Part shown: one piece after another, positions 2,918-24,836 of the stretch
Numbering within the stretch: the first letter of the stretch is position 1
Layout of the letters: the number at the start of each line of letters is the position of its first letter
NCBI GenBank assembly: GCA_043747095.1
Contig: JAYTPR010000140.1
Span: 1-33,629 of the forward strand
Origin: Candidatus Peribacterales bacterium
GTDB lineage: Bacteria; Patescibacteriota; Gracilibacteria; Peribacterales; Peribacteraceae
Direction: 5' to 3'
Length of the DNA: 33,629 bases
Notes under the pieces: model-generated
Seen by the model: only the letters and a program-made list of their open reading frames with translations
What the model was told of the DNA's origin: nothing
The model's database searches: none
Position numbers and translations under genes: made by a program

Positions 2918-4357
2918 TCAGCGCTTCCAGTCGATCTCCGGATAGGTTCTGAGGTGCGAAAGAACCTCCGTTTCTACTGCCACGAGCTTCGCCTCACTTC
3001 TGGCTTCAATACAGATGCTCAAACATGGGCTCGTGTTGCTGTAGCGGATGCCTGCCCATGCGCCATCACCAAGGTCGATGCGCGCACCGTCGAGGGTAAT
3101 AACCGGATGCGTTTTTTGAAAATGCTTCGTTGCGTTCGCTACGATCTCAGCCTTCAGATTGTCAGGGCAATGCGGACGCATCTCGAGTGTCTGATGCACT
3201 TTTGGAAACTCTGCGATGAGATGGGATATATGCCTTGCCGCAGGAAGGCCCCCACCCCCAACCCCTCCCCCTGCGGGAGAGGGGAGCTCTGCATTTTTTA
3301 GAATAGAAATAACTCTCAAAGAAGCCACCAATGCATCATCAAAACCAAAATAGTCTTCACCACAGAAAAAGTGCCCAGACTGCTCACCACCGAGAAGAGA
3401 GCCGTTGTCACGCATTGCGTGTTCTACAAATGAATGTCCGACTTTGCACATCACCGGTTTGCCTCCCCATTTCCTGGTTTCGGTTTCGAGGAGTGATGAG
3501 TTACTGACCGTAAAAATAATCGGCGCACCTTTGTGCCGCACCAAATGATCCTGCGCAAGCAGCAGCAACGTCTGATCAGCAGTGACGATGTTTCCCTGTT
3601 CATCAACGATACCAGTGCGGTCACCGTCGCCGTCGAATGCAAAACCGATGTCCGCTTTGTCCGCTCGCACTTTTTCCTGCAGTTCTTTCAGTGTGGAATG
3701 TTTACTCGGGTCAGCAGCGTGGTTTGGAAACGTACCGTCCGGCTCAGTGTAGAGCTCATGCACCAGCGCGCCTGTTTTCCGCAGTACAGAGCAGTACACA
3801 GGGCCTGCGACTCCGTTACCTCCGTCGACAACAATGGTCTTTCCTTTGCCTGCACCTGCAAAAAGTTTTGCGAGAAAATCTTCGTATGGCGTGATGGCAT
3901 CAAAACTTTTTTTGGATCCGGCTGCATCGGTGAAAACTTTGTTCTCGATGCGCTTTTTCAAATCTTGGAGATCATCTCCGCTGTACGCTTCTGCATTTCG
4001 CAGCTGCAGCTTGATACCGTTATCTTCTTTCGGGTTATGACTCGCGGTGATTTGCACACCAGCATCAAAGTGTCCGTTGCAAATAGTAAAATAGTTCACT
4101 GGACTCGGTGTCTGCCCGATCTCAAAAACTTCACAGCCTGACTGCATCAGTCCTTCGCACATCTTTTCCATAAACACTGGGCTATGTGTGCGCGCGTCAC
4201 GACCGAGAACAACCGTCGGATGCGGATGTTCTTTGCCGTATTTTTCCTGCAATACCGTGCCAAAAGTACGGCCGATCAAGTAGCACGCCTCCTCTGTGAG
4301 TTGTGTTCCCGCCTTTCCTCGAATGTCGTACGCGCGAAAGATATGTGGATCAATCAT
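2918..4357 (-). CDS. phosphomannomutase/phosphoglucomutase (alpha-D-phosphohexomutase family)
   Basis: Motifs present are IFRAYDIRG, the catalytic-Ser loop GVQITASHNP, the metal loop FDGDGDR and the sugar loop GGEQSGH. I chose the ATG at 4357 (MIDPHIFRAYDIRG), which has TATACT 6 nt upstream. The track ORF starts at 4378. Confidence 0.9.
   Translation of the reverse strand: MIDPHIFRAYDIRGKAGTQLTEEACYLIGRTFGTVLQEKYGKEHPHPTVVLGRDARTHSPVFMEKMCEGLMQSGCEVFEIGQTPSPVNYFTICNGHFDAGVQITASHNPKEDNGIKLQLRNAEAYSGDDLQDLKKRIENKVFTDAAGSKKSFDAITPYEDFLAKLFAGAGKGKTIVVDGGNGVAGPVYCSVLRKTGALVHELYTEPDGTFPNHAADPSKHSTLKELQEKVRADKADIGFAFDGDGDRTGIVDEQGNIVTADQTLLLLAQDHLVRHKGAPIIFTVSNSSLLETETRKWGGKPVMCKVGHSFVEHAMRDNGSLLGGEQSGHFFCGEDYFGFDDALVASLRVISILKNAELPSPAGGGVGGGGLPAARHISHLIAEFPKVHQTLEMRPHCPDNLKAEIVANATKHFQKTHPVITLDGARIDLGDGAWAGIRYSNTSPCLSICIEARSEAKLVAVETEVLSHLRTYPEIDWKR
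3247..3288. repeat. GC-rich REP-like palindromic element embedded in frame in the mutase CDS
   Basis: The sequence ggcccccacccccaacccctccccctgcgggagaggggagc contains the hairpin cccctc-ccc-ctgc-ggg-a-gagggg. It translates (minus strand) to ELPSPAGGGVGGGGLPAA, which interrupts otherwise alignable mutase sequence. Confidence 0.4.
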
Positions 4358-4460: not shown

Positions 4461-6134
4461 ATGCCAACACCCCTCAGCGTCGCGTACTTCACGATGGAAA
4501 TTGGCCTCACCGCTGAAATCCCTACCTATGCCGGAGGACTCGGCATGCTTGCAGCTGATCTCATGATGTCTGCCGCAGACATGGGAGTGCATGCAGCGTG
4601 TATGACCGTGCGTTGGCAGCACGGCTATATGAAGCAGACGATTCGCGATGATGGTTCACAGTCCTACGCAGAGATGAGCTGGAAACCGGAGAAACACATG
4701 CGTCTGATGCCGAACAAAGTGACGGTGCAGCTTGATGGTCGTGCAGTCACCGTGGGTGTGTGGGCTATGACAATCAATGGAAGGGGAGGACACAAAGTCC
4801 CAGTATTCTTTTTGGATACCGATCTTCCAGAAAATTCGTTCGATGATCGAAAGATCACACATCAACTCTACGGCGGTGATGGATACATGCGCCTCAAGCA
4901 AGAAGGTGTACTCGGTATTGCGGGAGTACGCATGCTGCGCTCACTCGGCTATGACCAGAAAGACATCGGTACGTACCACATGAATGAAGGACACGCTGCG
5001 CTTTTGACACTGGAACTCCTGCGCGAACGCGACTTTAAAGATGAGGCCGTACAGCCGTCCTGCGCCTTTACAACGCACACGCCGGTAAAAGCCGGACACG
5101 ACGTTTTTCCGTACGACATGGCCTGGAAAGTCCTTGGCGATAATTTGCCGTGGCACATCAAAAAGATCTCAGGAGAAGATGGGCTTTCGATGACGCACCT
5201 TGCGATGCATCTCTCGAAAAAAAGTTTCGGTGTCTCTGAAGTGCACGGCATGGTGAGTAACCGTATGTTCCCTGGTGAAGATATCGGCTTCATCACCAAC
5301 GGTGTTCACCTCGGACGTTGGACGAGTCCAGAGATGCAGAAACTTTTTGACATGTACGCACCAGGTTGGCACGAAAAGCCGGAGGAACTCAGTAAGCACT
5401 GCCGTGACATTCCAGATGCCGAACTTCTTGCAGCGCACAAAGCCGCCAAGAAACGTTTGATCGACCACGCGAATAAATTTGCACCCGTTGCGCTCGACCC
5501 GAACGTTCTCACTATCGCCGGTGCGCGCAGAGTCGTGTCGTACAAGCGCCCTGAGCTCATCTACACAAACCTGGAGCGTCTCGTGCAGGTCTGTGGAGGC
5601 AAAGTGCAGATCATCCACGCTGGTAACGCGCACCCTGCCGATCCGTTTGGACAGGAGGTGATCCAGCGCATGATCGAGAGATCGAGAGAGCTCAAAGACA
5701 AAATAAAAATCGTCTACATCCCGAACTACAACCCTGACCTGGCGAAGATGCTCGTCGCCGGTGCCGACGTTTGGCTCAATACTCCGACGCGTTTACACGA
5801 AGCATCAGGAACATCTGGCATGAAGGCTGCTGTGAACGGAACCATTAACCTCTCGACGCTCGATGGTTGGTGGATCGAGGCGTACGCGTCTGATCCGGAA
5901 TCTGGCTGGAGAATTGGGCCACTGTCACAAGCCCTCGACGCAGATGACACGCGCACCATCGACGCTGAAGACTTGTACACCGAATTGCAGTACCAAGTGA
6001 TTCCGGAGTACGAGTACGCAGACCACATCCGCTGGGCACGCCGCATGAAGCGCAGCATTGGACTTGCTGGAACATTTAACACGCACCGTGCGATTCGCGA
6101 GTACTGCGAGAAAGCCTGGAACACAGAGCGCTGA
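4461..6134 (+). CDS. glgP: alpha-glucan (glycogen/maltodextrin) phosphorylase, GT35 short form
   Basis: 557 aa. It has the PLP-lysine motif EASGTSGMKAAVNG and the N-terminus YFTMEIGL...YAGGLG typical of the short alpha-glucan phosphorylase group. Confidence 0.9.
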   Translation: MPTPLSVAYFTMEIGLTAEIPTYAGGLGMLAADLMMSAADMGVHAACMTVRWQHGYMKQTIRDDGSQSYAEMSWKPEKHMRLMPNKVTVQLDGRAVTVGVWAMTINGRGGHKVPVFFLDTDLPENSFDDRKITHQLYGGDGYMRLKQEGVLGIAGVRMLRSLGYDQKDIGTYHMNEGHAALLTLELLRERDFKDEAVQPSCAFTTHTPVKAGHDVFPYDMAWKVLGDNLPWHIKKISGEDGLSMTHLAMHLSKKSFGVSEVHGMVSNRMFPGEDIGFITNGVHLGRWTSPEMQKLFDMYAPGWHEKPEELSKHCRDIPDAELLAAHKAAKKRLIDHANKFAPVALDPNVLTIAGARRVVSYKRPELIYTNLERLVQVCGGKVQIIHAGNAHPADPFGQEVIQRMIERSRELKDKIKIVYIPNYNPDLAKMLVAGADVWLNTPTRLHEASGTSGMKAAVNGTINLSTLDGWWIEAYASDPESGWRIGPLSQALDADDTRTIDAEDLYTELQYQVIPEYEYADHIRWARRMKRSIGLAGTFNTHRAIREYCEKAWNTER

Positions 6135-6211
6135 TCTTTCACATCGTTTCCGAGAGGCGCCTCTGGCCGACGTTCGGCTGGAGACATCCTCTCTGTACGG
6201 AGACACGTTCA

Positions 6212-6490
6212 ATGATTGAACTCCCCACGCGTCGCGTCATGGAAGAACGTCTTACGAGCGTCTTGGGCATTCCCCTCGACGATCTGTTCAAAGCTCTTAG
6301 CGACACCGCCGGTCAAACGATGACCAGCGAATTGTTTGCAAGCCGACTGCTCACCGCAGCCAACGGCTTCCAGCGGACATTACATCCTTCAGCTGCCGAC
6401 ATTTTCGTCGGCAAACTGCCGGACTTTGTCCGCGCCCTCGTCCCTGACGAAGGGCTTCACACGCGCGTTCTGGCGCTCGTCACAACGTGA
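6212..6490 (+). CDS. hypothetical protein (92 aa)
   Basis: The ORF is followed by a clear intrinsic terminator. I recognised no motif. Confidence 0.4.
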   Translation: MIELPTRRVMEERLTSVLGIPLDDLFKALSDTAGQTMTSELFASRLLTAANGFQRTLHPSAADIFVGKLPDFVRALVPDEGLHTRVLALVTT

Positions 6491-6506
6491 CTTCCAGAGA
6501 GATTCA

Positions 6507-6537
6507 GGCGCAGCAACCCCCGTTGCGCCTGTTTTTT
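6507..6537 (+). terminator. rho-independent terminator
   Basis: The hairpin ggcgcagc-aaccccc-gttgcgcc has an 8-bp stem including one G-U pair. It is followed by tgtttttt. Confidence 0.7.
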
Positions 6538-6619
6538 GGGTTGTCCGCTTTCATTGTCATGGGCGGGCTTGTTTGCTACTCTTTCCCGGCTGCAATAGAG
6601 TGCAGCACCGCCTGATCCT

Positions 6620-6649
6620 TTGTGACACCGTTTTAGTGACACGTAGAAA
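6620..6649 (+). promoter_or_regulatory. possible tRNA-Asp promoter (TTGTGA-18-TAGAAA)
   Basis: The hexamers were read by eye, about 15 nt upstream of the mature tRNA 5' end. The match is weak. Confidence 0.3.
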
Positions 6650-6664
6650 ATGTACCACTCGTGT

Positions 6665-6741
6665 GGAGCCGTAGCTCAGCTGGTTAGAGCGCTTCCCTGT
6701 CACGGAAGAGGTCGCGGGTTCGAGTCCCGTTGGCTCCGCCA
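6665..6741 (+). tRNA. tRNA-Asp (anticodon GTC), CCA encoded
   Basis: The cloverleaf folds by hand. The acceptor is GGAGCCG/TGGCTCC, the D arm GCTC..GAGC, the anticodon stem CTTCC/GGAAG with loop CTGTCAC, and the T arm GCGGG-TTCGAGT-CCCGT. The discriminator is G, followed by CCA. Confidence 0.95.
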
Positions 6742-6769
6742 TTATCAACACACAGAATCAAAGGCTTTT
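6733..6769 (+). repeat. direct repeat copy 1 (includes the last 9 nt of tRNA-Asp)
   Basis: The sequence gctccgccattatcaacacacagaatcaaaggctttt matches 9700-9736 at 33 of 37 positions with no gaps. Confidence 0.8.
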
Positions 6770-9699
6770 TTGTGTGGAACCGTATCTTGCAAGCGCGAGA
6801 TTAGCTCCGCTTAGATTTATAATACTTCCTTCGAAAAAGTGTTTTTCCGCATGAATAAAGTGTGAATGACACTGATTCCTTAGAGCTGTTCTAAAGGGGG
6901 AGAGAACGTTCTTTTTGGCTTCCGATAGAAGCAAATCTTCTCACCCTCGCTAAACGCGTAGGGAGGGGGTATTTTTAGAGGTACTGAACTTCTAGACTTG
7001 GGTCATGCTTGCATCCTACACACAATTACCGGATCACCGCTTCACGTATCTACAACGTGGATTAGTCACCGCAATCCTCATTGGCACCAATCTGGTTCCG
7101 CTCAACGTTTCGGCTCAATTTGCTGATGTAGATAATAACAACAAAAATACTGAGGCAATTGAGTATGTACGGAATCAGGGGATTGTAGAAGGGTATAGCG
7201 ACAAAACATTTAGACCCGAGAATAAAATTAATCGTGCAGAGTTAGTAAAGATTCTCGTAAAAAGCTTCCTACACAAAGAAGATGTTTCTGGATCAGACTG
7301 TTTCTCAGATGTTCGCTCTGAGTGGTTCGCCCCTTATATCTGTACTGCTGCAAAGGCAGGGATTGTAGCTGGATATCCGGATGCTACATTCCAGCCCTCA
7401 AAACCTGTTAATTTTGTCGAAGCCGCAAAAATGATTGGGATTGCCCTGAGCCTGAAGATAGAGAAGGATGCGCAGCCTTGGTATAAACCTTTTGTTTCTG
7501 CGCTGGAAATGAAAAGTGCCATCCCCATCTCAATACAATCATTCAGCCAAAACATTTCTCGCGGGGAAATGGCGGAAATAATCTTCCGTCTCAGCACAGC
7601 GGTAGATGACAAGCCTACGAGAACTTTTGCAGAACTTGCAGGCGTAGAAACGAAAACAGCTCAACAGACAAGTAGTGAGGATGGGTGCTCTTCTTCCGGG
7701 AAGGGGGAAATCTGCAGTAAATCATTGTTCTCACTACCGCATACACTTGAAACATACCGAACCGATGGATTGGATTCGCTCGAGTTACTCACGGATAGCG
7801 ATAACAAACATTCTGTTTTTTACATTAAAAATCGCTTCCGTGACACTGAATTGTTTATTGATGGAAAATACAAAGGAAAATATGACAGATTTGCGGCTTC
7901 TGTGAGTGAAGATGGAAGCGCGCCACTTGTTGTATTTGGATCAGGAGACCATCTGTTTCTATCAAATCAGTGGGGTCAGATAAAGATCAGCCCCATAGTG
8001 CAAAATATGATTTCCGAATCAATCCAACGACGTATCTTCCCGACATTTCCGGTCAATAGCATTGAAGAGGCTGTGATCAAGCAGGGTGAGCGTGAGCGTG
8101 AAATGTCCAAGCAGCTTAAGGAATATCTGAATTGGTCTGACGCCCAAGTCGAAGCATCTGTAACAGGTGCGATTGAGCGAGTATATCCGAAAGAACTTAA
8201 ACATCTGGCTTCTCAGCTCAAGCTAAATTCCTTGTCTCTTGGAGATGTTTTCCTTCTACTACACTACAAAAAAACTGGCGAAAGACCTTTCAATGGTATT
8301 TTCATTTCTTTTGTTTGGAAACAAAATGATCATCGTAGTGTGATTTTCCTGAGTCTCACGGATGCAAATGAGGCTTGGGCATTAGACATTGTTGATGGAG
8401 AATTAGTTGGCCTTTATCCAGCCTTTGCACCATGGGGAAATAGTCAGCCTGTTGCTTATGACGCTCAATCGAACACGCTCGCATTTCCTGGAATTAATCC
8501 AGAGATAACGGACTCTGTTGGTTCGTCCACCCTAGAAGGAAAGGCGATGTGGATAAATGGAGCTCTCGAGAAAACATTCAATTCTAATATCTCTTTCCCA
8601 CGTTTATCGAATCAAGGAGAGTTGCTATACATAGGTACAAATATTAAAGAGAAAGGCGAAGAATATAACTTCGACTGTACTGCGATTATTGGTAAAACCA
8701 GCCGCCCATTCGCATGTAACGACCCATTATTTGCTCGTTTTATTACTTACACAACAGCGTTTCGATTCCCACGTGTTAGTCCCGATGGGAAAACTGTGGT
8801 GTACCCCGAACTAGTAGACCCAAGTGAGGCAAAAGATGATTGGCTATATCCCGAGAAAGCATTTACCTCGAGGCTAATTGTGAACGGCAAGCCTCAAGAT
8901 GCCCACCCATGGGTAGATTTTCCATACTTCACTAAGAAGGGCCTGGCTGTCGTAACTCACTCTGACAACAGCGAAGCATATGTCGATAGTTATGTGGAGT
9001 GGGATGGAAAGAAGGTGGGGCCGTTTCAGAGCCTGCTTCCAAACCTTGCGAGTACGACAGACTTTCGTGGCTACCCCCCAATGTTTCAGTCAATCCATGG
9101 CAGCGTGGGGGATGAGGACCTCCCCGATGCAGTGATCGTAAGTCCTGATGGAGAAAGTATTGCTTTTAGCGGCTATAACACGAAATCAGGATGGACTCTC
9201 TATAAAAACATGGAACGCATCGCATCGTATGACCATATTTCGATGCTTACTTTTAGCCCTGATAGCGAAAAACTTGGATACCTAGGTACCTCTATCGACC
9301 GAAGTAAATCTGAGCCTGGGGTACAAATTGGAGAGTATAGATTGGTTGAACAACCTTTTGAACGAGTAGCTTTATCACAGGTGATTGTGAATGGTCTAAC
9401 CTTGAGTAGTCATGAAAAAGTTCTTTGGATGCAGTTCGCTCCGAATACATCAGACCTCCTCTATATCGCGAAGGATAATGGAAGATATCGTTTGCTGCGC
9501 AATGGCATACGTATTGGAAGTGAGTTTGATGCGTTGGTGGAAGCTCCAACCTTCTCCTCTGAAGGTACCTTGAAGTTTGGCGTAGTGGATGGCTTGAATG
9601 TAAAAATAGTCACTTTTTCATCTTTGTAGTCGCCACCTCTTAAATAGTCATGCCACGGTGCATAAGTGTTTTCCTACGCAATCTAATAGCATGCAGAAT
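6742..9699. mobile_element. candidate tRNA-Asp-associated islet or insertion remnant (no integrase)
   Basis: The segment is bracketed by the 37-nt direct repeats. The interior is visibly more AT-rich than the flanks. Single 60-nt lines I counted gave about 30-32% GC at 7201 and 8281, 57% at 9001 inside the insert, and about 53% at 5401 in glgP. No recombinase gene is present. Confidence 0.3.
7005..9629 (+). CDS. SLH-domain envelope protein with a C-terminal TolB/PD40-like beta-propeller region (874 aa)
   Basis: The N-terminal signal-like segment is followed by three SLH-like repeats: FADVD..AIEYVRNQGIVEGYSDKTFRPENKINRAELVKIL, FSDVRSEWFAPYICTAAKAGIVAGYPDATFQPSKPVNFVEAAKMI, and WYKPFV..ISRGEMAEIIFRL. 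The C-terminal part has recurring SPDG-type motifs: VSPDGKTVVY, VSPDGESIAFSG, FSPDSEKLGYLG. Confidence 0.85.
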   Translation: MLASYTQLPDHRFTYLQRGLVTAILIGTNLVPLNVSAQFADVDNNNKNTEAIEYVRNQGIVEGYSDKTFRPENKINRAELVKILVKSFLHKEDVSGSDCFSDVRSEWFAPYICTAAKAGIVAGYPDATFQPSKPVNFVEAAKMIGIALSLKIEKDAQPWYKPFVSALEMKSAIPISIQSFSQNISRGEMAEIIFRLSTAVDDKPTRTFAELAGVETKTAQQTSSEDGCSSSGKGEICSKSLFSLPHTLETYRTDGLDSLELLTDSDNKHSVFYIKNRFRDTELFIDGKYKGKYDRFAASVSEDGSAPLVVFGSGDHLFLSNQWGQIKISPIVQNMISESIQRRIFPTFPVNSIEEAVIKQGEREREMSKQLKEYLNWSDAQVEASVTGAIERVYPKELKHLASQLKLNSLSLGDVFLLLHYKKTGERPFNGIFISFVWKQNDHRSVIFLSLTDANEAWALDIVDGELVGLYPAFAPWGNSQPVAYDAQSNTLAFPGINPEITDSVGSSTLEGKAMWINGALEKTFNSNISFPRLSNQGELLYIGTNIKEKGEEYNFDCTAIIGKTSRPFACNDPLFARFITYTTAFRFPRVSPDGKTVVYPELVDPSEAKDDWLYPEKAFTSRLIVNGKPQDAHPWVDFPYFTKKGLAVVTHSDNSEAYVDSYVEWDGKKVGPFQSLLPNLASTTDFRGYPPMFQSIHGSVGDEDLPDAVIVSPDGESIAFSGYNTKSGWTLYKNMERIASYDHISMLTFSPDSEKLGYLGTSIDRSKSEPGVQIGEYRLVEQPFERVALSQVIVNGLTLSSHEKVLWMQFAPNTSDLLYIAKDNGRYRLLRNGIRIGSEFDALVEAPTFSSEGTLKFGVVDGLNVKIVTFSSL

Positions 9700-9736
9700 G
9701 CTCCGCCATCATTAACACACAGAATCAGAGTCTTTT
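9700..9736 (+). repeat. direct repeat copy 2
   Basis: The sequence gctccgccatcattaacacacagaatcagagtctttt matches 6733-6769 at 33 of 37 positions. Confidence 0.8.
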
Positions 9737-9794
9737 ATGGAGCCTTCGTGTGCCCTAAGCCTTGGGCTTTTCTTAGGATTCTCTTTGTATTAGC

Positions 9795-10142
9795 ATGCGG
9801 CACTCTTTTTTTCGCATGCCTCTCATTCTTCCCGAAAACACTGTCACTCAAACTTTGGACGCCGTTCCAAGCGTCAAGACTGCAGCAGATGTTGAACGTC
9901 AGATTCAAGCGACCATCGAGCGCATATTGTCGATAGGACTCCGTAAATGTTGTGATGATTTTCGCAGAGCTGCTGATGATTTTCGGGCACGGAGAAATGC
10001 CCATGAATTAAGTGGCAAATTTGCATATCTCGATGATCCGTATTTGCGAACTCTGGCCATAGCTGGTGAGCAACACATCTGCCAAGAGGGTCGCGTCAGA
10101 CAGCTTCCTGCGCTGTTCGATCTCCGTGAAAATTATTGGTGA
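9795..10142 (+). CDS. hypothetical protein (115 aa; alternative ATG at 9816)
   Basis: This is an ORF only, with no recognisable motif. It ends 40 nt before a strong hairpin. Confidence 0.4.
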   Translation: MRHSFFRMPLILPENTVTQTLDAVPSVKTAADVERQIQATIERILSIGLRKCCDDFRRAADDFRARRNAHELSGKFAYLDDPYLRTLAIAGEQHICQEGRVRQLPALFDLRENYW

Positions 10143-10181
10143 CATCGACAGTGGCAATATCGTAAGAACGACGAGACTCAT

Positions 10182-10210
10182 AAAAAACAGGGGAACACTG
10201 TGTTCCCCTG
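10182..10210 (-). terminator. rho-independent terminator of the 253-aa SLH gene
   Basis: The hairpin is caggggaaca-ctg-tgttcccctg. On the minus strand it is followed by TTTTTT (plus-strand aaaaaa at 10182-10187). Confidence 0.75.
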
Positions 10211-10233
10211 GTTGAGACCGATGAACGATACAA

Positions 10234-10995
10234 CTACTTGCTCAAGTTCTCCCAGCTCTGGGATGGCTGGTTCGTGATGTTCATCTTTGCACGATAGATC
10301 ATCACGGCAACCTCACCGCGAGTGACTGGCTGACCGAGGAAACGGATGGACGTCGGAATGCCGTTACGCTTCGAGAGCGAGTCGACATAGACGAAGTACC
10401 AACGCTGATCGGCGACGTCTCCCTGTTCCTGACTGACGCGGAAGATGCGGCTGACCAATTTTGCAGCTTCTACGAAGCTCACAAGACGCGTCGGACGGAA
10501 GTAGCCGTCGGCGTATCCGTGGACGATGCCGGAAACTTTGGCGTTGCAGATGTCGAGAGCGCGAATGGTATCAGTAGTGACGTCATTGAAGAGGCGAATG
10601 CCTGCACCGTTTTTGTTGAGACATGAGTTGTCACGATTTGCCATGAGGAACTCGCTCGTCATAAGCTGCACAAGTTCGTCTCTGCGAATGCGCCTTTCTG
10701 GGTGAAATTTACCGTCAGTGTAGTCACCCTTGAGAATGTTGTGCGTGCGGAGGTATTCGATTGCTTCAAATTGTGGGTGCGATGGAGTGACGTCGAGAAA
10801 CTGCTTCGTAGAAAACGGAGTTGCAGATGGAGCAGTTGCAGGAGAAGAGGAAGACGTCGTGCCTGTTGGCGGTACATACGGTGAACGTCCGATATCTTCT
10901 GGGAACATGGCGAATGCAGCTTCAGCGCTCATCCAGAGCACAAGAGCCAAGGTCGGTCCTGCGAGGAGCAGTGTGTTACGTCGTTCGAGCGTCAT
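10234..10995 (-). CDS. SLH-module-only envelope protein (253 aa)
   Basis: It has a signal peptide ([21 protein letters not shown]) and a Ser/Thr/Pro linker. Three SLH-like repeats follow: [56 protein letters not shown], and [19 protein letters not shown]. Confidence 0.85.
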
Positions 10996-14469: not shown

Positions 14470-16163
14470 GAACCGATGTCGAAATAATCCTGCAGAGTTC
14501 CGATCAGTCTGGAGAAATAACTACGTCCGCGAACAGCTTCCTGCAAATCAACAAAATATTCGTCGGCGCAGCGAATGGCTTCAGGCACAGAGTCGTCACA
14601 GAACGTCACGGTATCTACAATGTCACCTGCGCGAGCGATGTCTGCGCGCAGTTCTTCATAACGAGTATCGAAGTCCGTGCGTCCGTCACTACGAAGTACG
14701 GCGCGCAGTTCTCCAATACGCTCATCAACAGCGATAAAGTCCAGAAGCGCCTTCCTCTGCTGCACGATCGTGCCACGTTCGAAGCTATCTTTTGCTTCAA
14801 CAGGAGCGCCTGCCGAAAGACCGTCAAGGAACGGGACGATGTTGTCGAGACTTGCTACCTGATCCGCCAGTCCTGCAGTTTCTGCAATGCGCGTAGCTGC
14901 TGCTGCGGCATGCGTCGGGTTGATTTCAAAGATTGCGATGTCCGCTTTGGAAATAGCTTTGTTTCGTTCGAGCGCCAAAAGGAAGCGGTTGATAGCCGAC
15001 ACGACGCGCTCCGTATCCTGCTTCGTTGCTTCCTTACTGACGTTTTCAATCGCAGTTAGGAGCGGCTCCATATCTTTCGGATCAAGTCCGTACTCCTGCT
15101 CAAAGAGAGGGAGTGCCTGCTTGAGAGCCTGCGCTTCAGTACGCACAAGTGTGAGCGAAGCTGGCACATCTGTCGTAGCGTATTTTTCCGATGCCTCCTT
15201 GAGTGCCTTCAGTGTTGCGAAGACAGAAATAGGACGGTTGCCCGGCGTGAGATAATTCTCAAATCCGGACGGAGCGTCTTTTGCGAGATCAATACCCTGA
15301 CGCTTGAGACGTGCAATATCGACACCAACTGCGCTCTGCAAATCACCACGACGAATCACTTCCACGGCGCGCTTCAATTCATCGATAGCAATTGGAACTT
15401 CTACATCGACGAGATTCGACTTCTTCAAATCTTTCTCTTCCACAACATCAGTACTGATCGGTGTGGAGATGAACTGCTTCAAGAGATCGGTATAGCGCGT
15501 GCGCTCTGCAGACCGCGCATCTTGCAATGCAGCGTAGAGCTCCACTGCCCATTCACGCTCCTGCTTCGTGAGGCGTCGGCCGTTTGCGAGTTTATTCACA
15601 ATCGTCTCAAGTTCGATGATTTGTTCACGAGTCAGATAGTTTTTGTAATCCTCACCTGCCTCAGTACCGAGGAATAGATTGGCCTGCTGAGCCTGCGAAA
15701 TAACGATGGTGGGTACTTGCTGCTGTGGTTGAGGCTGCTGCTGCGCTGCAGGTTCCTGTTGCTGATTTTTTGTCGGCTCGGAGGAAGAAGATGCTGCATC
15801 ATGAGCACCTTCCAGCTTGCAGCTTCCGGTACAGCCGTCGCCGGAAATACCGTTACCGTCGTCACACTGCTCTCCACGAGTTTGCTGAATAACGCGATCA
15901 CCGCAGAATTCGATCTGGCAGTAGCGGTTGCAGCCGTCGTTACTTTGCAAGTTGCCGTCGTCACACTGTTCGTTGAGGTCGATGGAAAGATTTCCGCAGA
16001 GCTCGATGCTGCACGTGCTGCTGCAACCGTCACCGCTCTGCAAGTTGCCGTCATCACATTCTTCCGGCTCTTCTTTGTCACCGTCACCACACACTAAGTC
16101 CGCAGCCTGCGACGGAGCTGAAGAATGAAGAGCACTTCCGATCATCACGAGTGCCAGAAGCAC
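14466..16163 (-). CDS. secreted protein with three Cys-rich CDDGN...GDGC repeats (Myxococcus-type cysteine-rich repeat, DUF4215-like) plus an orphan C-terminal domain
   Basis: The repeats are CGDG..EECDDGNLQSGDGCSSTC, CGN..EQCDDGNLQSNDGCNRYC and CGD..EQCDDGNGISGDGCTGSC. A Q/P-rich linker and about 400 aa of helical sequence follow. The TGA stop overlaps the ATG of the downstream sigma-like gene (ATGA at 14466-14469). Confidence 0.8.
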   Translation of the reverse strand: MLLALVMIGSALHSSAPSQAADLVCGDGDKEEPEECDDGNLQSGDGCSSTCSIELCGNLSIDLNEQCDDGNLQSNDGCNRYCQIEFCGDRVIQQTRGEQCDDGNGISGDGCTGSCKLEGAHDAASSSSEPTKNQQQEPAAQQQPQPQQQVPTIVISQAQQANLFLGTEAGEDYKNYLTREQIIELETIVNKLANGRRLTKQEREWAVELYAALQDARSAERTRYTDLLKQFISTPISTDVVEEKDLKKSNLVDVEVPIAIDELKRAVEVIRRGDLQSAVGVDIARLKRQGIDLAKDAPSGFENYLTPGNRPISVFATLKALKEASEKYATTDVPASLTLVRTEAQALKQALPLFEQEYGLDPKDMEPLLTAIENVSKEATKQDTERVVSAINRFLLALERNKAISKADIAIFEINPTHAAAAATRIAETAGLADQVASLDNIVPFLDGLSAGAPVEAKDSFERGTIVQQRKALLDFIAVDERIGELRAVLRSDGRTDFDTRYEELRADIARAGDIVDTVTFCDDSVPEAIRCADEYFVDLQEAVRGRSYFSRLIGTLQDYFDIGS

Positions 16164-21898: not shown

Positions 21899-23788
21899 AT
21901 GAAAAACTTTTTCGAAACCGACGGCATCGTGTCACTACGTGAAGCTCGCATGACGCATATCACGCTCCGTCCAGGTGCAGAAAGCGCTCCAGCTCCCGAG
22001 CAGCCTCAGGGGCCCCGTAGAGTTGATATGCGCGCAGATCAGGTCCCAGAAGAATTGCTTCGTAGCATTGTAGAAAGGAGAAATGGAGCTCAGGAAGAGG
22101 CGACTGAAACTGCAGCAACCCACCTCGATACCATTGCTTCAGGCGTCCAACGTAATTTGGATGCTCTGTATTCCAGCCCTAATGTCTCTCCACAATTTGT
22201 GAAGGAGTACCTGGATAGCGTGAATCAACAACTGCATCCTCGGGGGCTACATGCCAGTTCGGCAAACAGACAGGCGCGGATCTCACCGTATAACCCCAGG
22301 CAGTTTCCACCAGAGCAGATTGCAAAGAAGAATCGCATCAATGAACTGCAGGGGAAGATCAACCAGGTCGATCGTAATATTCGGGAGCTCATGCAGGGCT
22401 TTCGGCAGAACGCAGTGCAGTACAGGAATCAAAAAGGAGCCTCTATGAATCGAGGCAACGTCGCTCCTGAGATCAACCAAATGCTGATGCAGTTTCCGCA
22501 AGCCTCCATGCAGGCGAGCGCGAACCCACTCCATCAACTCCACGCACTCAAGTTCAGGCTCCAGCAGGAACTTGCGGGCGTGAAATCCGGCATGATCAAG
22601 GTTGCAGTTCCAGGGCAGGGCGGTGAGCAGGACCCGAGCCTCATCAATGATCCTCGCTATGCCGCGAGCGGCACGGGCGACACACGCTTTAACTTGAATG
22701 GCGCACCAGGCGGCATCGGTCCAGACGGTTTGCCACTTCAAAACGCCATGCCTACCGCTGCGGAACAAGCAGCTATTCTCAAGCTGACGGCGCGTTGGAG
22801 GGGCATCGGCACAGAGGAGGAGCGTGATACGGTGGAAGGTTTTCTTATGATGGACGGCGTCGATGTGAGTAATAGCAATCTCGCGACTGATGAGATCGTG
22901 ATGGCCAGCCCCGAGGAGAAAGGCATGATGTTCCTTATGGGACTCATTACGGTTCTCAAGTCATTTTTGGATCGCTTGAACAGAAAAAAAACAGTGATTG
23001 GCGAAAGCGCCGCTACCGACAAAGACCCCGCAACCATGAAGTCGGAAGACATCACGGCGGAGAAAGAGGGGAACGACAAGAAGCTTGATGAGCTCACGAA
23101 GAAGAAAGGTAAAAACGAAACCGATATCAAGGATGCTGAGAAGAAACTAAAGAACGTCGAGAAGCCGCTCGAGGGTGAGGCAAAGACGAAAGTAGAAACG
23201 GAGCTCAAGCAGATGAAAGAAGAGCTGAAGAAGATCAATGAAGAAATCGCAAAGCTCGAGAAGCGAAACAAAGAACTCGCCAACCCTGATACATTTAAGG
23301 ATCGCGAGAAGGACATCACGACGCAGGATAAGCTGAAAGATGATCCACTCTTTAAGGATTTTCAAAACGCGAAGGAGCAAATGAAGCAGAAGCTGCGTAG
23401 TGCTTTTGAACAAGTGCTGGATTCCAAAGATGCTGCAGGGAACATGAAGAAGCTCGGTGAAGAACTTGGCGTCGATCTGAGTGATACCGGCCTGAATATA
23501 AAGGATGCAGTTGAGGCACTTGTTACTTTTATGGATGCATTTGTGGATAGCTCTGGCTTAGAAAAAAATGGCGCGGGCAAATATCGTATGACGATGGATG
23601 TGGTCAAACCTTTCGAGAGCATTATGAAAAACCCTCTTCTCGCAAAGCTGCAAAAAGCGATGCGTGAGGATATGCCCGCATTTACACAAGAAATGGCAGC
23701 CGCTATTGATCTTGAGCTCACATTTGCAGGAGACAGGGTAATGACGACATTTATGGACGGACAAACGCTGCTGAAAGAAATGTTCTAG
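21899..23788 (+). CDS. hypothetical protein (629 aa): Q/N/P-rich N-terminal half, K/E-rich coiled coil, globular C-terminus
   Basis: This is a long intact ORF with coding-like composition. I recognised no known motif. The central segment is KEGNDKKLDELTKKKGKNETDIKDAEKKLKNVEKPLEGEAKTKVETELKQMKEELKKINEEIAKLEKRNKEL. Confidence 0.75.
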   Translation: MKNFFETDGIVSLREARMTHITLRPGAESAPAPEQPQGPRRVDMRADQVPEELLRSIVERRNGAQEEATETAATHLDTIASGVQRNLDALYSSPNVSPQFVKEYLDSVNQQLHPRGLHASSANRQARISPYNPRQFPPEQIAKKNRINELQGKINQVDRNIRELMQGFRQNAVQYRNQKGASMNRGNVAPEINQMLMQFPQASMQASANPLHQLHALKFRLQQELAGVKSGMIKVAVPGQGGEQDPSLINDPRYAASGTGDTRFNLNGAPGGIGPDGLPLQNAMPTAAEQAAILKLTARWRGIGTEEERDTVEGFLMMDGVDVSNSNLATDEIVMASPEEKGMMFLMGLITVLKSFLDRLNRKKTVIGESAATDKDPATMKSEDITAEKEGNDKKLDELTKKKGKNETDIKDAEKKLKNVEKPLEGEAKTKVETELKQMKEELKKINEEIAKLEKRNKELANPDTFKDREKDITTQDKLKDDPLFKDFQNAKEQMKQKLRSAFEQVLDSKDAAGNMKKLGEELGVDLSDTGLNIKDAVEALVTFMDAFVDSSGLEKNGAGKYRMTMDVVKPFESIMKNPLLAKLQKAMREDMPAFTQEMAAAIDLELTFAGDRVMTTFMDGQTLLKEMF

Positions 23789-24750: not shown

Positions 24751-24836
24751 TGGTGCCCAGGAGAGGACTTGAACCTCCATACCCTTGCGGGTACCAGCTC
24801 CTAAGGCTGGCGTGTCTGCCATTTCACCACCTGGGC
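24751..24836 (-). tRNA. tRNA-Leu (anticodon TAG), long variable arm, CCA encoded
   Basis: The minus-sense sequence is GCCCAGGTGGTGAAATGGCAGACACGCCAGCCTTAGGAGCTGGTACCCGCAAGGGTATGGAGGTTCAAGTCCTCTCCTGGGCACCA. The anticodon stem is CCAGC/GCTGG with loop CTTAGGA. Confidence 0.95.

Follow-up and report, generated by a model that had tools for sequence, protein, structure and literature searches.

Bacteria of the Candidate Phyla Radiation (CPR) have tiny genomes, and gene exchange among them is poorly documented. A 33,629-nucleotide (nt) contig from an uncultured member of the Peribacteria (Peregrinibacteria, CPR), the whole of which is called ‘the window’ below, raises the question of how a compositionally foreign gene, encoding a secreted SLH-domain protein of 874 amino acids (aa; SLH874), came to lie beside an intact tRNA-Asp gene, between two copies of a repeat that begins inside that tRNA. 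A first-pass annotation, made from the DNA alone, had taken the two copies for the attL and attR sites of a single integrated element. The feature is a recombinase-less islet at a tRNA-Asp hot spot, an arrangement of a known kind, with one new twist: a head unit derived from the tRNA that recurs in relatives in front of different cargo genes.

The source is placed in the Peribacteria by its alpha-glucan phosphorylase, whose homologues all carry Peribacteria-type source names. Relatives were drawn from 80 related loci in GTDB genomes, all of them metagenome-assembled genomes of Peribacteria and labelled L0xx; three further relatives (L094, L095 and L096) were found via a sigma-like gene (sig375) of the window. 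In what follows, O denotes the 3' end of the tRNA (its last nine nt in the window), S the trailer that follows it, F5 the 5' fragment of a pseudo-tRNA-Asp, and T' a tandem pseudo-tRNA-Asp copy.

Results

A compositionally foreign gene beside tRNA-Asp

The DNA between the repeats (6770-9699) has a guanine-plus-cytosine (GC) content of 0.438, against 0.515 in the rest of the window; its tetranucleotide distance ranks first among 123 equal-size segments (z = 4.4), and, corrected for GC, its tetranucleotide correlation is 0.53 (mean 0.85). The SLH874 gene has a third-position GC content (GC3) of 0.40, compared with 0.49-0.63 in 19 of the 20 other genes, and a codon-usage chi-square of 246 (41 degrees of freedom), compared with 33-92 in all other genes. 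The early impression of an AT-rich interior is thus borne out, GC3, tetranucleotide and codon-usage tests all marking it as the most atypical part of the window, and the gene is compositionally foreign. No recombinase or transposase domain was found by Pfam in any open reading frame (ORF) of the window, SLH874 and its small neighbour orf115 included, as the first reading had also held, and PHROGs matched the SLH region alone.

The gene is absent from this site in relatives. Of the related loci, 20 have a tRNA-Asp after the phosphorylase gene, among them those of all relatives whose phosphorylase identity is 70% or more, and the SLH gene occurs at none of these 20 sites, that of the sister species included.

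Among 5.8 billion clusters, SLH874 has just two full-length homologues, P0122 (59% identity; L093) and P0123 (53%; L090). The first lies on a contig of 2.8 kilobases (kb) that begins inside a tRNA 3' end (…GTCAGCCCCGCCA), the tRNA-Asp variant of the L068 lineage, and the gene starts ~140 nt later; the leaders of the two genes show no similarity beyond the tRNA, and the similarity of their trailers is marginal (p 0.05-0.1). The second is not near any tRNA and has a GC3 of 0.46, against 0.56-0.72 in seven of nine complete neighbouring genes. In the L068 lineage the orthologue of SLH604, one of two native SLH proteins of the window, is just 43% identical, below the 59% of the SLH874 homologue, which suggests, without proving, that SLH874 and P0122 share a more recent ancestor than their hosts do.

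These homologues also bear on whether the gene has simply stood at tRNA-Asp since an early Peribacteria ancestor and been deleted from most descendants, its low GC content being a family trait. Both are GC-poor too, and that of L093 keeps the linkage to tRNA-Asp. Such descent is nevertheless very improbable: the family has just three members in all those clusters and is missing at every one of the 20 sites, the L090 copy has no tRNA nearby, the match to L093 is closer than native surface proteins show at a comparable distance in the phylogeny, and it is GC3 and codon usage that deviate, not merely a GC content driven by amino acids.

SLH874 was first described as a paralog of the two native SLH proteins, SLH253 and SLH604. 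This is true of the shared SLH anchor (31-35% identity over ~190 aa) and not of the remainder, as the other ~650 aa are unrelated. The anchor is 44-51% identical to those of many Peribacteria SLH proteins, and the donor was therefore probably another member of this group; it would most likely be one of lower GC content. As to the idea that surface proteins are swapped at this site, an SLH-anchored protein was added, and nothing shows the replacement of one.

The repeat and its edges

Positions 6733-6772 and 9700-9739 agree without gaps at 35 of 40 positions (33 of the first 37, with mismatches, judged by eye, at repeat positions 11, 14, 29 and 32) and form the strongest long-range repeat in the window. 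The probability of at least 33 matches in 37 is 1e-15, and ~6e-7 such pairs are expected by chance in 33.6 kb, so that the 37-nt repeat is not due to chance; its coordinates hold as well.

Its supposedly sharp bounds hold on the left side only, where the repeat includes just nine nt of the tRNA and, before copy 2, the adjoining 100 nt show no tRNA likeness beyond that of shuffled sequence (p ~0.9). On the right, a 4-nt gap is followed in both copies by (G)TGGARCC, the 5' start of a tRNA-Asp-like sequence. After copy 1, GTGTGGAACCGTATCT matches the tRNA start plus four upstream bases at 14 of 16 positions (p ~0.015). The F5a fragment in this place (Table 1) contains a hairpin with a stem of 6 base pairs, and its last ten nt (TTAGCTCCGC) match the tRNA 3' end (TTGGCTCCGC) at nine of ten positions or, alternatively, the D arm equally well. 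A short repeat, GCTCCGC, occurs at 6804-6810 and 9700-9706, and the hairpin-containing stretch after copy 2 runs to ~9777. The trailer of copy 1 is significantly similar to the tRNA-Asp trailers of L006, L013, L025 and L071 and shows no significant similarity to that of the closest relative, L010; the unit is therefore patchily distributed and not simply inherited. There are no inverted repeats pairing the two ends of the insert and, by Pfam, no transposase, as would mark a transposon or a miniature inverted-repeat transposable element. An Rfam search of 6400-10300 returned the tRNA-Asp as its sole match; the leader of the SLH gene thus has no Rfam match, and it has no promoter-like match at 9/12.

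Table 1. Features of the islet and its borders, with positions in the window.
Feature	Position	Strand	Basis
Promoter-like conserved box upstream of tRNA-Asp (TTGTGACACCGTTTTAGTGACA...GAAAAT); promoter-like match 6622-6651	6619-6651	+	promoter-like match
tRNA-Asp(GTC), intact, anchors the variable region	6665-6741	+	ARAGORN; Rfam RF00005, 68.7 bits
Repeat copy 1: last 9 nt of tRNA (O) and trailer S1	6733-6772	+	repeat search
F5a, pseudo-tRNA-Asp 5' fragment: GGAACCGTA, hairpin TCTTGC-AAGC-GCGAGA (6785-6800), TTAGCTCCGC	6776-6810	+	
AT-rich leader of the SLH gene	6811-7004	+	read from sequence
SLH874, module 1 cargo: secreted 874-aa protein with signal peptide, two SLH domains and a weak PD40-type beta-propeller signal	7005-9629	+	Pfam
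Repeat copy 2: O2 (9 nt), trailer S2, and GGAGCC, the start of pseudo-tRNA remnant F5b	9700-9744	+	repeat search
orf115, module 2 cargo: small protein with no assigned family, GC3 0.405	9795-10142	+	
SLH253 terminator hairpin, right edge of the species-specific tract (~10180)	10183-10213	-	terminator scan

The islet extends beyond the second copy

Comparison with relatives places the edges of the foreign tract elsewhere. On the left, homology to L010, the closest species for this flank (phosphorylase 96% identical in aa and 85% in nt), ends at 6743, in the last bases of the tRNA, and gives way to a HAD-like gene. On the right, L094 (82% nt identity) and L095 share the block of sig375, response regulator, histidine kinase and SLH253, and homology ends at ~10180, just outside the SLH253 terminator hairpin, with a V-type ATPase operon beyond. 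Copy 2 therefore lies inside the island: the species-specific tract runs from 6742 to ~10180 (3.44 kb) and matches the low-GC tract, which continues for 450 nt past copy 2. Of the attL/attR proposal, the linkage of a compositionally foreign SLH gene to the tRNA, at a site of variable cargo, is supported; that the two repeats were made by this one insertion and bound it is not supported in the form first given. SLH874 is the only cargo between the repeats and not the only cargo of the islet, as copy 2 is followed by orf115, a gene that is real but rare, with five homologous clusters (best E = 5.6e-24) and no match in Pfam or PHROG.

The arrangement recurs in two ENA and two Logan assemblies at 99.99-100% identity and, being identical in four independent assemblies, is not an assembly artefact. 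Two Logan contigs are continuous from tRNA-Asp into the islet, with no sign of mixed alleles; the start of a Logan contig inside the tRNA (6682) was considered as such a sign and rejected, since the break is 5', where species share the tRNA sequence.

The V-type ATPase operon is complete beside SLH253 or the sigma-like gene in L094 (14212-21128), L095 (11936-15974) and L096 (5388-13924), the last having sig375 and then the operon directly. In the window its slot is taken by orf115, SLH874 and tRNA-Asp; either the operon is part of the same variable region or the locus has been rearranged.

The orf115 block without the SLH gene

An orf115 homologue, P0344 (45% aa identity), was found on Logan contigs that start inside tRNA-Asp (L098, L100 and L101), in which the SLH253 orthologue is 67-70% identical to the SLH253 protein of the window. 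L098 lacks the SLH874 gene at this locus and reads, in order, tRNA-Asp end, a 19-nt S-like trailer, a T-arm fragment that is split by an 18-nt palindrome and ends in GCTCCGCCA, an S2-type trailer, TAGAACCG… and the orf115 homologue. Its O-S unit matches copy 2 of the window at 35 of 37 positions and copy 1 at 33 of 37, and it shares three bases that distinguish copy 2 from copy 1, so that the duplication behind the two copies predates the split between the window and L098. Over 143 nt (window 9700-9839) the two loci align at 78% nt identity, and their native SLH253 genes at 74%. By this comparison, copy 2 and orf115 appear orthologous to an L098 block that stands beside tRNA-Asp with no SLH gene, the nearest thing to an empty site, and the orf115 module, common to both, is probably the older one. 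The counterpart of copy 2 in L098 still terminates a partial tRNA that runs from the T loop, which indicates that copy 2 is the 3' end and trailer of a displaced or tandem partial tRNA-Asp. That copy 2 might be the relic of a decayed tandem tRNA-Asp had been raised at the outset; the T arm of L098 agrees with it, and the DNA upstream of copy 2 in the window, with its lack of tRNA likeness, does not. Full pseudo-tRNAs fill the slot before copy 2 in L006 and L071.

Before a second orf115 homologue, P0345 (L102), stand GCCGCCA, an S1-like trailer and AAGCCGTATCC. The gene ahead of this unit encodes a membrane protein, and the 590 nt upstream contain no tRNA. An O-S-F5 unit thus heads orf115 in three different upstream contexts (window, L098 and L102).

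Another conceivable origin is that the whole 3.4-kb tract came from a related member of the Peribacteria by allelic replacement, through two homologous crossovers, the left one in the fully conserved 77-nt tRNA-Asp and the right one in either the SLH253 region or an O-S unit; the repeats would then have been inherited from the donor, with no site-specific step in this genome. The tRNA is identical across genera, and both breaks in homology fall at conserved elements, namely the end of the tRNA and the terminator of SLH253. A single donor would agree with the similar GC3 (~0.40) of the two cargo genes, and L098-type genomes have a GC content of 0.44-0.49. We regard this replacement as improbable, however, in that it merely shifts the origin of the repeats to the donor, and the divergence of the orf115 block from L098, close to that of native SLH253, fits vertical inheritance of the second module and not its arrival together with the first.

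A tRNA-derived head unit recurs in relatives

Further copies of the unit were found beside tRNA-Asp in other Peribacteria. The array of L006 can be written as tRNA-O / S-T'-99 nt / O / S-T'-RelBE / O / S-T''. Its unit U consists of TTGGCTCCGCCA, a 27-nt trailer and a pseudo-tRNA in which the palindrome TCAGCCTAGGCTGA replaces the 5' half of the D arm, and the order is tRNA, U, a 99-nt stretch, U, RelB/YafQ and a third U with two inserted hairpins; cargo boundaries lie 12-13 nt from the tRNA end. The L006 pseudo-tRNAs are weak tRNA matches in Rfam (38-39 bits), and the L071 copy is called a tRNA by ARAGORN. Those of L071, L007 and L025 carry a different hairpin that is still self-complementary (TCCCGC-NNNN-GCGGGA). 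In L006 and L071 a hairpin pseudo-tRNA homologous to F5a stands where F5a does in the window; in L007 and L025 it is upstream of the tRNA. L013 has the tRNA, a trailer, a 50-nt tRNA 3' half and an identical trailer again (the two O-S copies are 100% identical to each other), followed directly by SLH253. In L025, which shows the classical arrangement, an S-type trailer follows the tRNA; next come a Na/Ca exchanger gene and a displaced tRNA 3' half, and last a second trailer unlike the first, the one that directly follows the tRNA in L016, L018 and L023. A search of 1.4 Mb of Peribacteria loci with an nhmmer profile of 11 O-S-F5 units brought up no additional copies.

The possibility that the pseudo-tRNA hairpins are tRNA introns was rejected, as no tRNA results when they are removed. 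Larger inserts also occur in the pseudo-tRNAs (CYTGCC..GTAG-hairpin-CGAAG..GG), and these are members of a family of small palindromes dispersed over many unrelated positions. The family has the general form CYTGYCNNCC-GTAG-(variable hairpin)-CGAAG-GGNNG, with covariation in both stems and an internal loop, GUA/GAA, similar to a loop-E or sarcin-ricin motif. Members occur at L006:12932, L007:8630, L023:6005, L014:17514, L090:12857 and ~20 other positions in related loci. Some sit within the anticodon loop and T region of pseudo-tRNA-Asp copies, others far away from tRNAs, and none is in the window.

Arrays of this kind invite the explanation that a tRNA-Asp and a pseudo-tRNA-Asp were duplicated in tandem long ago, and that the SLH gene later replaced the body of T' between F5a and the last nine nt, whether through illegitimate recombination or through integration at the end of T'; the junction repeat would then be GCTCCGC and not the 37-mer. 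Two O-S copies with a partial tRNA between them and no SLH gene are indeed present in L098 and L013, and full-length T' copies directly follow tRNA-S in L006 and L071. The three diagnostic bases shared with L098 put the split of the copies before that speciation, and F5a, directly after copy 1, ends in the ten nt that resemble the tRNA end, mirroring the T'-O / cargo / O-S order of L006. This sequence of events leaves unexplained, however, why S-F5 heads every module, including orf115 in its three contexts; the identical copies of L013 make the duplications recurrent and recent, as from an active process; the end of F5a is as readily a D arm; and T' itself is most simply a displaced fragment of a tRNA gene (tDNA). 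We rate a tandem origin, the main rival to serial integration, as unlikely.

A hot spot with variable cargo and candidate recombinases

What follows tRNA-Asp is different in each relative. The cargo is RelB/YafQ in L006; a large serine recombinase, a RepB-type primase, McrBC and a DNA methyltransferase in L007; HAD hydrolases in L010 and L014; a DUF5655 protein in L015; Fic in L017; TrmB in L019; HEPN in L020; a Na/Ca exchanger in L025 and L071; and, also in L071, a DKNYY protein with a GC content of 0.38 in a background of 0.57. Two paralogous small Cys-rich (CxxC) genes (L071:13045-13587 and 15382-15864) flank this low-GC gene, and the block may be another composite module.

In L007, the domains Resolvase/Recombinase/Zn_ribbon_recom and RepB_primase/PriCT_1 directly follow a pseudo-tRNA-Asp, and the ORF of the large serine recombinase (L007:8613-10379, minus strand) runs into the 3' end of this pseudo-tRNA. 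A second such ORF (L055:2414-4039, plus strand) overlaps a tRNA-Ala(GGC) at 4010-4086 by 30 nt. Their position suggests that the elements of L007 and L055 target tRNA 3' ends with a serine and not a tyrosine recombinase. Neither the window nor the 10-kb flanks of related arrays contain a tyrosine recombinase. As these ORFs abut tRNA 3' ends, large serine recombinases are a candidate class for the islet, by analogy with L007 and L055.

How the islet may have been assembled

On balance, we consider it slightly more likely than not that the tract from 6742 to ~10180 is a two-module islet that arose by serial site-specific integration at the 3' end of tRNA-Asp. It would be parsed as tRNA-O / S1-F5a-SLH874 / O2 / S2-F5b-orf115 / native SLH253 terminator, each module comprising a trailer S of ~30 nt, a hairpin-bearing 5' fragment of pseudo-tRNA-Asp and one gene, with the last 9-13 nt of the tRNA between modules. 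Each newcomer would regenerate the tRNA end and push the older modules, and the displaced tRNA ends, inward. The SLH module, which is proximal to the tRNA, was probably the later arrival. Serial integration at a tRNA 3' end gives just such stacks and would account for those of the window, L006, L098 and L102. As the window encodes no recombinase, the modules are relics unless they are moved in trans; the recombinase that presumably made the junctions, and any replication genes, would have been lost later, or would never have been present and would have acted from elsewhere.

Several observations weigh against serial integration. Neither the islet nor the remainder of the 33.6-kb window contains a recombinase, excisionase or replication gene. 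No one insertion or deletion would turn the window into L098 or the reverse, as a T arm precedes copy 2 in L098 only, and no clean empty site (the tRNA followed directly by S2-orf115) was seen, L098 and L013 keeping a stub of 55-81 nt between their O-S copies. Copy 2 retains just nine nt of the tRNA, which is shorter than the leftovers of the two usual classes of tyrosine integrase, which cross over in the anticodon or T stem (PMC4383910). The three O-S-T' units of L006 are identical, so that duplication in situ fits as well as independent arrivals. Finally, an exact-pattern scan of metagenome contigs of the Joint Genome Institute (JGI) for the O-S unit (CCGCCATYATYAACACACAGAATCA) gave 0 matches, as did a scan of the same contigs for the hairpin pseudo-tRNA signature and a scan of IMG/VR for the last 25 nt of tRNA-Asp, and there was no evidence of an empty site, a circle junction or a phage attP in the JGI contigs or IMG/VR.

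Beyond serial integration as such, the recurrence of the head could point to a cassette system of Peribacteria anchored at tRNA-Asp, a rather unlikely possibility in our judgement, in which recombinase-less modules of one gene or one operon, with tRNA-derived heads of 50-120 nt, would be moved in trans. Such a head would begin with the final 9-13 nt of tRNA-Asp, continue with a conserved ~30-nt trailer and end in a pseudo-tRNA that has a hairpin in place of the D arm, and the enzymes that insert, stack and exchange the modules could be the large serine recombinases of L007 and L055.

Other features of the window

The genes around the islet are, in order, RecJ (-), phosphoglucomutase (-), phosphorylase (+), orf92 (+), tRNA-Asp (+), SLH874 (+) and orf115 (+), followed by SLH253 (-), histidine kinase (-), response regulator (-), the sigma-like gene of 375 aa (-) and a DUF4215 gene (-). 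The tRNA-Asp is 100% identical to those of L006, L007, L010, L013, L025 and L071, and the motif of its upstream box is kept in L006, L007, L010, L012, L025 and L071. A 411-nt stretch upstream of this box (6121-6532), made up of orf92 (6212-6490, GC 0.58) and a terminator (6505-6531), is missing in the sister L010, which has only 24 nt between the phosphorylase gene and the promoter box; orf92 has no homologue in any fetched locus. Two assemblies differ from the window nearby: L005 (ERZ28573559), otherwise identical, is longer by ~105 nt where the phosphorylase gene ends (window 6090-6128) and has clustered differences there, giving a protein of 559 aa instead of 557, and ERZ27314301 has a C-to-T change at window position 6670, in the acceptor stem of tRNA-Asp. 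Farther away, three tandem copies (15852-16064; period 93-99 nt, 72-90% identity) lie inside the DUF4215 gene, which encodes a Cys-rich repeat protein, and AT skew (0.45) and GC skew (0.18) peak at 23001-23500, inside an ORF of 629 aa (21899-23788) without a Pfam match, near a tRNA-Leu (24751-24836).

Discussion

Genomic islands integrated at tDNA are said to have been described by Reiter in 1989 and by Williams in 2002. The islet shares with them an intact tRNA at one end whose 3' end is directly repeated at an internal or distal boundary, foreign composition, cargo specific to a strain or species, alternative islands at the same locus in relatives, and tandem arrays. It differs in having no integrase, in the shortness of the displaced tRNA part (9 nt, or 12-13 nt in L006), in a repeat that extends ~30-40 nt past the tRNA into the trailer and the start of a pseudo-tRNA, and in its very small size, with one gene per module. 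The principle of integration at tRNA 3' ends, tandem arrays, and the anticodon and T-stem classes of crossover are laid out in the Islander paper (PMC4383910). Of the marks of an island used there, the intact tRNA, the absence from relatives and the atypical composition are all found here, and for the displaced fragment there is a direct copy, which includes just nine nt of tRNA, lies 450 nt inside the tract and has an orthologue in L098 without the SLH gene; no integrase lies within.

The islet also resembles, by analogy, decayed islands of the tycheposon type, in which new elements push older ones inward and leave partial tRNAs and degraded elements behind (bioRxiv 10.1101/2020.12.28.424599). 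Like those islands of Prochlorococcus, it belongs to a streamlined genome and lies beside a tRNA gene, with cargo modules, probable successive integrations that push older ones inward, and partial tRNAs and degraded elements scattered in the island. Tycheposons combine a tyrosine or large serine recombinase with a primase, as does L007, a likeness of gene content. In contrast, the window has neither a recombinase nor a replication module by the tRNA, both genes being present in L007, and it comes from another phylum and concerns tRNA-Asp, which was outside that study.

With integron cassettes the modules have in common that they are tandem, single-gene and recombinase-less, each with a short hairpin-containing site, and that the cargo varies by genome. 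Unlike in integrons, neither IntI, attI nor Pc was seen, and the site of the islet is derived from a tRNA and stands 5' of the gene; nor was an attC-type imperfect palindrome with extrahelical bases identified at the islet.

Myxophage Mx8, a full phage with a tyrosine integrase, reportedly targets the 3' end of tRNA-Asp in a tandem tRNA-Asp locus, and its recombinase gene is said to overlap the attachment site. The target and its tandem copies correspond to those of the islet, and the overlap of recombinase ORF and site to L007 and L055, whereas the islet has no phage genes. Integration of Mx8 at tandem tRNA-Asp genes is cited in PMC4383910 (its reference 24).

The locus is a site, mapped to the base, at which surface, toxin-antitoxin and defence genes turn over among closely related Peribacteria, and the O-S-F5 unit offers a short sequence tag for finding such modules in metagenomes. 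If the modules are not mobilised in trans, the islet would be a routine case of decay at a hot spot of integration into tRNA genes. If they are, it would describe the swapping of surface-anchored proteins in an episymbiotic lineage, and, should a cassette system be at work, it would represent, within a reduced CPR genome, the functional counterpart of integron cassettes, with surface, toxin-antitoxin and defence genes as cargo.

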